A stretch of DNA of 64,000 nt, taken from Escherichia coli O127:H6 str. E2348/69 (lineage in GTDB: Bacteria > Pseudomonadota > Gammaproteobacteria > Enterobacterales > Enterobacteriaceae). How positions within the stretch are numbered: the stretch's first letter is position 1; every line of letters starts with the position of its first letter. Below, piece after piece: positions 5,150 through 6,250 of the stretch. Made by a program: the position numbers and the translations under genes. The stretch is taken from the NCBI RefSeq assembly GCF_000026545.1, contig NC_011601.1; one strand, given 5' to 3'. The notes below the pieces were generated by a model. The model did no database searches. It was not told the DNA's origin and was given only the letters and a program-made list of their open reading frames with translations.

Positions 5150-6250
5150 ATGGAACATTTCGACGTGGCGATTATTGGCCTCGGCCCGGCAGGGTCGGCG
5201 TTGGCACGAAAGTTAGCAGGAAAAATGCAGGTGATCGCGCTGGATAAAAAGCACCAGTGTGGTACTGAAGGTTTCAGCAAACCTTGTGGCGGTCTGCTGG
5301 CACCGGACGCGCAGCGATCTTTTATTCGCGATGGACTGACGCTTCCTGTCGATGTCATCGCCAACCCGCAGATTTTCAGCGTCAAAGCCGTCGACGTCGC
5401 CGCATCGCTCACGCGTAACTACCAGCGAAGCTATATCAATATTAATCGCCATGCTTTCGACTTGTGGATGAAATCGCTGATCCCCGCCAGCGTTGAGGTT
5501 TACCACGACAGCCTGTGTCGAAAAATCTGGCGTGAGGATGATAAATGGCATGTCATTTTTCGCGCAGACGGCTGGGAGCAGCATATTACCGCCCGCTATC
5601 TGGTCGGTGCCGATGGTGCCAACTCGATGGTGCGGCGACATCTCTACCCGGATCATCAGATTCGTAAATATGTCGCCATCCAGCAGTGGTTCGCAGAGAA
5701 ACATCCGGTACCGTTCTACTCCTGCATCTTTGATAATGCGATAACTGACTGTTACTCATGGAGTATCAGCAAAGACGGTTATTTTATCTTTGGCGGTGCC
5801 TATCCGATGAAAGACGGTCAGGCGCGTTTCGCGGCGCTGAAAGAGAAAATGAGTGCCTTTCAGTTCCAGTTTGGTAAGGCGGTGAAAAGCGAAAAATGCA
5901 CGGTGCTGTTTCCCTCACGCTGGCAGGATTTTGTCTGCGGCAAGGACAACGCCTTTCTGATTGGCGAAGCGGCGGGATTTATCAGCGCCAGCTCGCTGGA
6001 GGGGATTAGCTATGCGCTGGATAGCGCAGAGATTCTGCGTTCGGTATTACTGAAGCAGCCAGAGAAGCTCAATACCGCTTACTGGCGCGCCACTCGCAAA
6101 CTGCGTTTAAAACTCTTCGGCAAGATAGTAAAAAGCCGATGCCTGACCGCACCGGCTTTAAGAAAGTGGATTATGCGCAGTGGAGTGGCGCATATTCCAC
6201 AGTTGAAAGATTATCCAACGCGCTTCACATCGCCCACCAGCATGATGTAA
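5150..6250 (+). CDS. cbrA: FAD-binding oxidoreductase CbrA (colicin E2 tolerance; geranylgeranyl-reductase-like)
   Basis: ORF 5129..6250; N-terminal dinucleotide-binding motif [12 protein letters not shown]; start at MEHFD assumed. Confidence 0.8.

Follow-up and report, generated by a model that had tools for sequence, protein, structure and literature searches.

Background

Mutation of a stop codon is the main origin of overlaps between convergent genes, and 4-bp overlaps of the TTAG type have been reported (Lillo and Krakauer 2007, PMC2174442). The convergent pair of cbrA and dgoT that we describe here in Escherichia coli E2348/69 resembles the stop-mutation overlaps of the TTAG/TTAA/CTAA/CTAG class (PMC2174442) in that both genes are real, in that the phase is the same, with the third codon positions opposed, and in that the K-12 form of the pair is a TTAG tetramer; the E2348/69 form corresponds to the K-12 pair once that stop has been lost and the frame continues to the following in-frame stop. 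However, it differs from the overlaps in that report in two respects. The two states of cbrA/dgoT coexist as a common polymorphism within one species and recur across genera, and the base that switches between them is silent in the partner gene.

Two other kinds of described system come close to this locus. The first is the excludon: cbrA-dgoT is among the 165 convergent excludons present in at least 50% of 58 RNA-seq data sets from MG1655 (PMC12288877). As in the excludons listed there by ExcludonFinder, the genes have neither a spacer nor a terminator between them, but the excludon label of cbrA-dgoT in that work is purely coverage-based. The second is the intrinsic terminator located inside the coding sequence of a convergent neighbor (PMC2174442). 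Similarly, cbrA contains, on the sense strand of dgoT, an 11-bp hairpin followed by a U-rich tract; in contrast to the described cases, this hairpin is a prediction, and it is not bidirectional. In addition, the abstract of PMC2478687 states that a long overlap in a prokaryotic annotation is often the product of misprediction.

The cbrA/dgoT junction in E. coli E2348/69

We analysed a stretch of 64,000 nucleotides from the enteropathogenic strain E. coli O127:H6 str. E2348/69 (hereafter, the window). RefSeq coordinates were obtained via the E. coli E2348/69 record NZ_CP059840.2, to which window positions 5000-7700 are 100% identical. The gene pair and its overlap are as follows.

5150..6250, plus strand: cbrA coding sequence, long allele, 366 aa (RefSeq annotation)
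6211..7548, minus strand: dgoT coding sequence, 445 aa (ORF list, RefSeq annotation and TIGR00893 match)
6211..6250: convergent overlap of the cbrA and dgoT coding sequences, 40 bp (ORF list, sequence and RefSeq)

In RefSeq, cbrA is annotated as the colicin M resistance lipid reductase CbrA, an FAD-binding geranylgeranyl-reductase-like protein, while DgoT is the D-galactonate:H+ symporter, encoded by the final gene of the dgo operon. The cbrA frame stops at a TAA (6248-6250) of the plus-strand ORF, and dgoT stops at a TAA that appears as TTA at 6211-6213 on the plus strand in the ORF list. An earlier note on this DNA had placed the end of cbrA at 6250 and that of dgoT at 6211, with a 40-bp convergent overlap between them, and these ends are matched by both the ORF list and RefSeq. 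The two sources give different starts for cbrA, namely, GTG at 5129 in the ORF list and ATG at 5150 in RefSeq, which leaves the overlap unaffected. The codon registers of the two genes give the phase 123:213 for the overlap, placing the third codon positions of cbrA and dgoT opposite each other.

A single base sets the length of cbrA

Three elements in and around the overlap determine where cbrA ends; we refer to the first of them as the toggle codon and to the last as the backstop.

6212..6214, plus strand: toggle codon, TAT (Tyr) here and TAG (stop) in K-12 (pairwise alignments, allele counts and cross-species table)
6212..6247, plus strand: 12-codon C-terminal extension of CbrA, antisense of DgoT residues 434-445
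6248..6250, plus strand: backstop TAA that ends the extended cbrA (sequence), antisense of the Ser-Tyr codons of DgoT (TCT TAC)

In K-12 MG1655, cbrA encodes 354 aa, ends with TAG and shares a 4-bp TTAG overlap with dgoT. DNA alignment of the two strains revealed one relevant difference at the junction, base 6214: K-12 reads ...AAG GAT TAG, and E2348/69 reads ...AAA GAT TAT CCA ACG CGC TTC ACA TCG CCC ACC AGC ATG ATG TAA. When the proteins are aligned, the 12 extra residues are the sole difference between the two CbrA ends. The same base 6214 is the wobble base of the last Gly codon of dgoT (6214-6216), which is GGA here and GGC in K-12, and the change is therefore silent in DgoT.

Since a stop is absent at 6212-6214, cbrA is read through the antisense of the last 12 codons of dgoT until it reaches the backstop TAA, which is the same in E. 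albertii, E. whittamii, Pseudocitrobacter and the metagenomic contigs L004 and L005. In-frame stops in the cbrA frame across the dgoT antisense are spaced by 20.8 codons on average (median 14.5), and 75% of the gaps between them are at least 12 codons long; given this spacing, a run of 12 codons after the loss of a stop is what would be expected by chance.

The geometry of the junction is simple. The genes have no spacer between them, and the cbrA frame runs directly into the reverse complement of the dgoT stop, TAA being read as TTA on the plus strand. The first two bases of the cbrA stop come from the T and A of this TTA, and the third base of the cbrA stop is the complement of the wobble base of the last dgoT Gly codon. 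With GGC or GGT in dgoT, cbrA has TAG or TAA and stops, giving 354 aa in E. coli and a 4-bp overlap; with GGA or GGG, it has TAT or TAC and reads on to the backstop TAA, giving 366 aa and a 40-bp overlap. E2348/69 is in the GGA/TAT state, in which DgoT is unchanged and CbrA carries a 12-residue tail, predicted to be unstructured, outside its conserved fold.

Accordingly with the stop-mutation overlaps cited above, we found that both genes are genuine, that orthologues stop at the codon where the extension starts, that the extension lies outside the core of the protein, and that the end of the partner gene is conserved. The orthologous stop at the homologous codon is TAG in K-12, O157:H7, MS 21-1 and Escherichia sp. 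E1V33, and TAA in the C. amalonaticus group. The pair is thus an instance of the classic stop-codon-mutation route into a tail-to-tail overlap, and the 40-bp overlap is very probably the longer of the two states of an apparently neutral polymorphism at the cbrA/dgoT junction. As a textbook extension by stop-codon loss, the 40-bp tail-to-tail overlap needs no special mechanism and in itself matters little.

Allele frequencies in E. coli

To count the alleles, exact 30-mers across the toggle site were matched in 5,426 complete E. coli genomes, with the following results.

TAT, 40-bp overlap: 1,305/5,426 genomes (24%)
TAG, 4-bp overlap: 3,442/5,426 genomes
TAG with an O157:H7/O55:H7-specific SNP: 307/5,426 genomes
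Outside the three counted alleles: 372/5,426 genomes (7%)

Hence, TAG accounts for at least 69% of the 5,426 complete E. coli genomes. Because the same 30-mer with TAT is found in 1,305 complete genomes, the TAT junction is not a sequencing error. The 366-aa CbrA occurs in ST131 and in the divergent strain EC42405, and the 354-aa CbrA in MS 21-1.

The dgo operon itself has been lost in O157:H7 and O55:H7 genomes, the junction allele of which is common to 307 genomes. At one such locus, in O157:H7 ECP17-46 (L003, 4212-4325), all that remains of dgoT is its last 114 bp, which abut cbrA and are followed by yidX.

The junction in other species

We scanned one genome per species for a conserved dgoT motif and obtained 65 loci. 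The end of DgoT, ...LLVG(D/E/K/N)(V/I)(K/E)RVG, falls at an identical position in about 40 species of Enterobacterales, with the exception of one Pantoea species that has a single extra residue. DgoT of E2348/69 also matches the crystallised protein (PDB 6E9N/6E9O, 445 residues) over its full length, with the C-terminus ...LVGDVKRVG. Since this end is fixed in about 40 species and equals that of the crystallised protein, the dgoT end at 6211 is the conserved one.

The arrangement in which cbrA is convergent with dgoT was found only in Escherichia, the C. amalonaticus group, Citrobacter sp. Res13, Pseudocitrobacter vendiensis and two metagenomic contigs. Wherever cbrA and dgoT adjoin in this way, the overlap is either 4 or 40 bp, and its length is predicted by the bases at the junction.

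dgoT GGC / cbrA TAG, 4 bp: K-12, Escherichia sp. E1V33
dgoT GGT / cbrA TAA, 4 bp: three genomes of the C. amalonaticus group, Citrobacter sp. Res13
dgoT GGA / cbrA TAT, 40 bp: E2348/69, ST131, EC42405, E. albertii, Pseudocitrobacter vendiensis
dgoT GGG / cbrA TAC, 40 bp: E. whittamii, metagenome contig L005
TGA stop in dgoT / cbrA CAC, 40 bp: metagenome contig L004

All four bases are found at the toggle site across Escherichia, Citrobacter and Pseudocitrobacter, G and A giving 4 bp and T and C giving 40 bp. Such variation is what a synonymous position free to change should show. The junction is thereby a natural example of a base that is silent in one gene and switches the stop of its neighbor on or off, with two discrete overlap lengths across species.

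The read-through state is present in three outgroups, namely, E. albertii, E. whittamii and Pseudocitrobacter, as well as in the basal B2 lineage of E. coli. As far as these few taxa indicate, Escherichia therefore probably started from the 40-bp state, and the TAG of K-12 is probably derived. The trees used for polarity were local neighbor-joining trees of the cbrA body and of the 3' part of dgoT; they contain few sequences, some of them truncated, and lend weak support to this polarity.

The earlier note proposed, as one of two readings, that one of the two C-termini is shorter in reality, and it regarded orthologues in which one ORF normally ends before the overlap as counting against its observation. 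For E2348/69 the proposal does not hold, as its cbrA ORF truly reaches 6250 and the stop codons are unambiguous. It does hold for most E. coli: in K-12, and in no fewer than 69% of the genomes, cbrA stops 36 nt earlier, at the TAG of 6212-6214. The CbrA family model stops at residue 354, and the DgoT end is the conserved one. The short cbrA only half corresponds to an ORF that ends before the overlap, since it still runs 4 bp into dgoT; moreover, the 40-bp form is also found in E. albertii, E. whittamii and Pseudocitrobacter. Neither the cbrA nor the dgoT C-terminus is misannotated, and the 40-bp overlap is a known kind of feature that is already in the RefSeq annotation.

In other genomes cbrA has a neighbor other than dgo, and its end there is an ordinary one. 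In Enterobacter soli, Leclercia and Citrobacter NCU1 this is yidA, after a spacer of 37-68 bp, and in one metagenomic contig it is a DUF4056 gene, with an overlap of 12 bp. The cbrA gene of Salmonella salamae stops at a TAA of its own, beyond which lies a REP-like sequence; the contig ends within that sequence, 46 nt past cbrA.

In the C. amalonaticus group, CbrA has a 14-residue extra tail (about 960-1005 in L068, and the equivalent positions in L037 and L035). The DNA of this tail contains a perfect hairpin with a 9-bp stem, CAGYCCGCC-N9-GGCGGRCTG, with a compensatory change from T:A to C:G between genomes, and this pattern suggests that the tail may be a former intergenic spacer or hairpin over which translation now continues as far as the antisense of the dgoT stop.

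A candidate dgo terminator inside cbrA

Neither state of the junction leaves space for a terminator between the two coding sequences, and the cbrA and dgoT mRNAs must therefore overlap in both. A candidate for the end of the dgo transcript lies within cbrA.

6119..6159, minus strand: candidate intrinsic dgo terminator, antisense in cbrA codons 324-337 (fold, recoding test and conservation)

Its hairpin (6132-6159) begins 51 nt past the dgoT stop and has a G+C-rich 11-bp stem and a 6-nt loop, followed by the U-rich UUUUUACUAUCUU. The minus strand at 6090-6260 folds with z = -4.07, and the hairpin itself, at -18.4 kcal/mol, is stronger than 98-99% of synonymously recoded versions that encode this stretch of CbrA. 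The hairpin is conserved in Escherichia in which cbrA is adjacent to dgoT, in Pseudocitrobacter and in contig L004, and its G-U pair is replaced by A-U in E. albertii and by G-C in Pseudocitrobacter and L004; in the cbrA genes with a neighbor other than dgoT, no such hairpin was found at the same site. The U tract is the antisense of a conserved Lys-rich motif of CbrA, KI(V/I)KS. These features make the element at 6119-6159 a credible candidate dgo operon terminator, and the dgo transcript would then end inside cbrA, which can be tested directly. The Term-seq supplements that we searched contained no entries with a mapped 3' end for dgoT or cbrA, and our literature search for a dgoT terminator likewise returned none.

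A consensus terminator scan missed the hairpin at 6132-6159 because its A-U pairs use up part of the U tract. That scan returned only a weak hairpin of 7 pairs at the dgoT stop (6232-6216), which we rejected as a terminator. We also rejected a bidirectional terminator, as there is no spacer, and the hairpin at 6132-6159 lies upstream of the cbrA stop and is followed on the plus strand by UUUAAGAAAG only.

On the plus strand, no intrinsic terminator for cbrA was predicted in dgoT, and the consensus scan found none before 7662. Since none is predicted inside dgoT, Rho-dependent termination is the likely fate of the cbrA transcript.

Scanning the whole window against Rfam at gathering thresholds gave nothing near the junction. 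The hits elsewhere in the window that reached the gathering score were AsdA (antisense of dnaA mRNA), the sRNA STnc410, a ROSE_2 thermosensor upstream of ibpA, and ES036; as one list, the coordinates of the hits are 20463-20543, 51902-52059, 3190-3262 and 14950-14986.

Transcriptional interference between cbrA and dgo

The earlier note also raised antisense transcriptional interference as a consequence of the overlap. In its fullest form, this would be a functional excludon in which cbrA, induced by CreBC, and dgoRKADT, induced by galactonate, repress each other through collision of RNA polymerases or RNase III cleavage of the duplex, with the 40-bp form lengthening the translated part of that duplex. 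The two genes are under separate control, since cbrA has a cre tag and dgo is controlled by DgoR.

5088..5103, plus strand: perfect cre tag, TTCAC-N6-TTCAC, 47 nt upstream of the cbrA ATG (pattern search and sequence)

The role of cre tags is known from the CreBC regulon, and cbrA owes its name to being CreB-regulated; the tag at 5088..5103 is presumably the CreBC control site of cbrA. A functional excludon would further agree with the lack of any intrinsic terminator predicted for cbrA within dgoT, with the position of the sole good terminator-like hairpin of dgoT, 51-92 nt inside cbrA, which would make the transcripts overlap by about 90 nt or more, and with the presence of the pair in the core list of convergent excludons (PMC12288877). 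However, overlap of the transcripts follows trivially from overlap of the coding sequences and does not show regulation, and there is no evident antagonism between the functions of cbrA and dgo. Moreover, cbrA is otherwise unchanged both in O157:H7/O55:H7, where dgo is deleted, and in Enterobacter, Leclercia and Citrobacter NCU1, where its neighbor is yidA. The idea is also equally applicable to the 4-bp state and so leaves the 40 bp unexplained. Our literature search found no reciprocal-regulation or expression data for cbrA/dgoT.

In E2348/69, furthermore, the dgo operon carries an insertion.

7994..9543, minus strand: ISEc13 (IS4 family) in dgoD (annotation and junctions compared with K-12)

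The element has IS50-like ends, CTGTCTCTT...AAGAGACAG, and is flanked by an 8-bp direct duplication, TGCATGGG, at 7986-7993 and 9544-9551. By splitting dgoD directly upstream of dgoT, it parts dgoT from the dgo promoter, and the dgo operon is thus broken in this strain. Operon transcription from the dgo promoter into the overlap is probably reduced as a result, which argues further against a functional excludon; with the operon broken and its transcription reduced, interference is even less likely to matter in E2348/69. Taken together, transcriptional interference at cbrA/dgoT is possible but unsupported, and we consider mutual repression of the two units unlikely as the meaning of the overlap.

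A more elaborate version, which we regard as very unlikely, would have the dgo terminator embedded antisense in cbrA codons 324-337 and under selection as a nucleotide sequence in addition to the CbrA protein code, with the 4-bp or 40-bp state tuning reciprocal interference between cbrA (CreBC) and dgo (galactonate); the state of the overlap would set how far ribosomes travel on the cbrA mRNA into the duplex region.

A second perfect cre tag (TTCAC-N6-TTCAC) is located at 34768-34783, about 50-60 nt upstream of cbrB. There, cbrB is followed directly by yieK, annotated as a pseudogene with an internal stop, with no cbrC between them, although cbrC occupies that place in K-12. In the same block as cbrA/dgoT, yidQ (plus strand, 3501-3833) and yidR (minus strand, 3835-5049) form another convergent pair, separated by a single-base spacer, and this pair is also on the published list of K-12 excludons.

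The C-terminal tail of CbrA

An alternative is that selection maintains the 12-residue tail as a functional part of CbrA, for instance as a tag for localisation, stability or interaction, and that the K-12 form is a truncation. This can be weighed against what is seen at the end of the protein. The NCBIfam model NF008519 (equivalog, 355 positions) matches residues 1-354 of the 366-aa CbrA with 685 bits, and TIGR00893 matches DgoT with 491 bits. Among the thousands of CbrA homologues returned by our search, the core ends near ...SGVAHIP, at about residue 350, and is followed by tails of 0 to about 40 residues that vary in sequence. An AlphaFold2 model of CbrA based on 33 homologues has a mean pLDDT of 85.7; in this model, the final helix extends to residue 344, pLDDT is below 50 over residues 354-366, and the 12-residue tail is accordingly predicted by the model to be disordered.

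The tail sequence is conserved among the long-form E. albertii, E. whittamii and ST131. The conserved C-terminus of DgoT on the other strand imposes this conservation, and as the bases are common to both genes, constraint on the CbrA tail is formally inseparable from constraint on DgoT. In favor of a selected tail, the long form is found in E. albertii, E. whittamii, Pseudocitrobacter and basal lineages of E. coli and is probably ancestral in Escherichia, the tail is nearly invariant in sequence among the long-form lineages, and C-terminal tails exist in other CbrA lineages too. However, the conserved DgoT C-terminus fully accounts for the conservation, and at least 69% of E. coli genomes do without the tail. 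The occurrence of four bases at the toggle site is that of a free wobble position, the tails in other genera are unrelated in sequence and length, and the tail falls outside NF008519 and is predicted to be disordered. We therefore hold a selected function of the tail to be highly improbable and regard a neutral appendage as most likely. That the long form is kept in several species would also fit weak selection for it. CbrA has 354 aa in some E. coli lineages and 366 aa in others, a difference to bear in mind when colicin M resistance alleles are compared.

Lastly, that a sequencing or annotation error has created a false overlap, one of the proteins being really shorter, is virtually impossible: misprediction is a frequent source of long annotated overlaps in prokaryotes (abstract of PMC2478687), but the C-termini here are set by stop codons and not by the choice of a gene caller, both ORFs have full-length family matches, the DgoT C-terminus is the same as that of the crystallised protein, and an identical junction is shared by 1,305 complete genomes that are independent of one another and recurs in E. 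albertii, E. whittamii and Pseudocitrobacter, so that these genomes, the PDB match and the cross-species junctions already refute such an artefact.

At the other end of dgoT, a second in-frame ATG lies 15 codons downstream of the first (window 7504-7548; MDIPVN...) and would give a protein of 430 aa. The gene caller chose this inner ATG in one metagenomic contig (L006), whereas RefSeq and the crystallised construct use the ATG at 7548, giving 445 aa.
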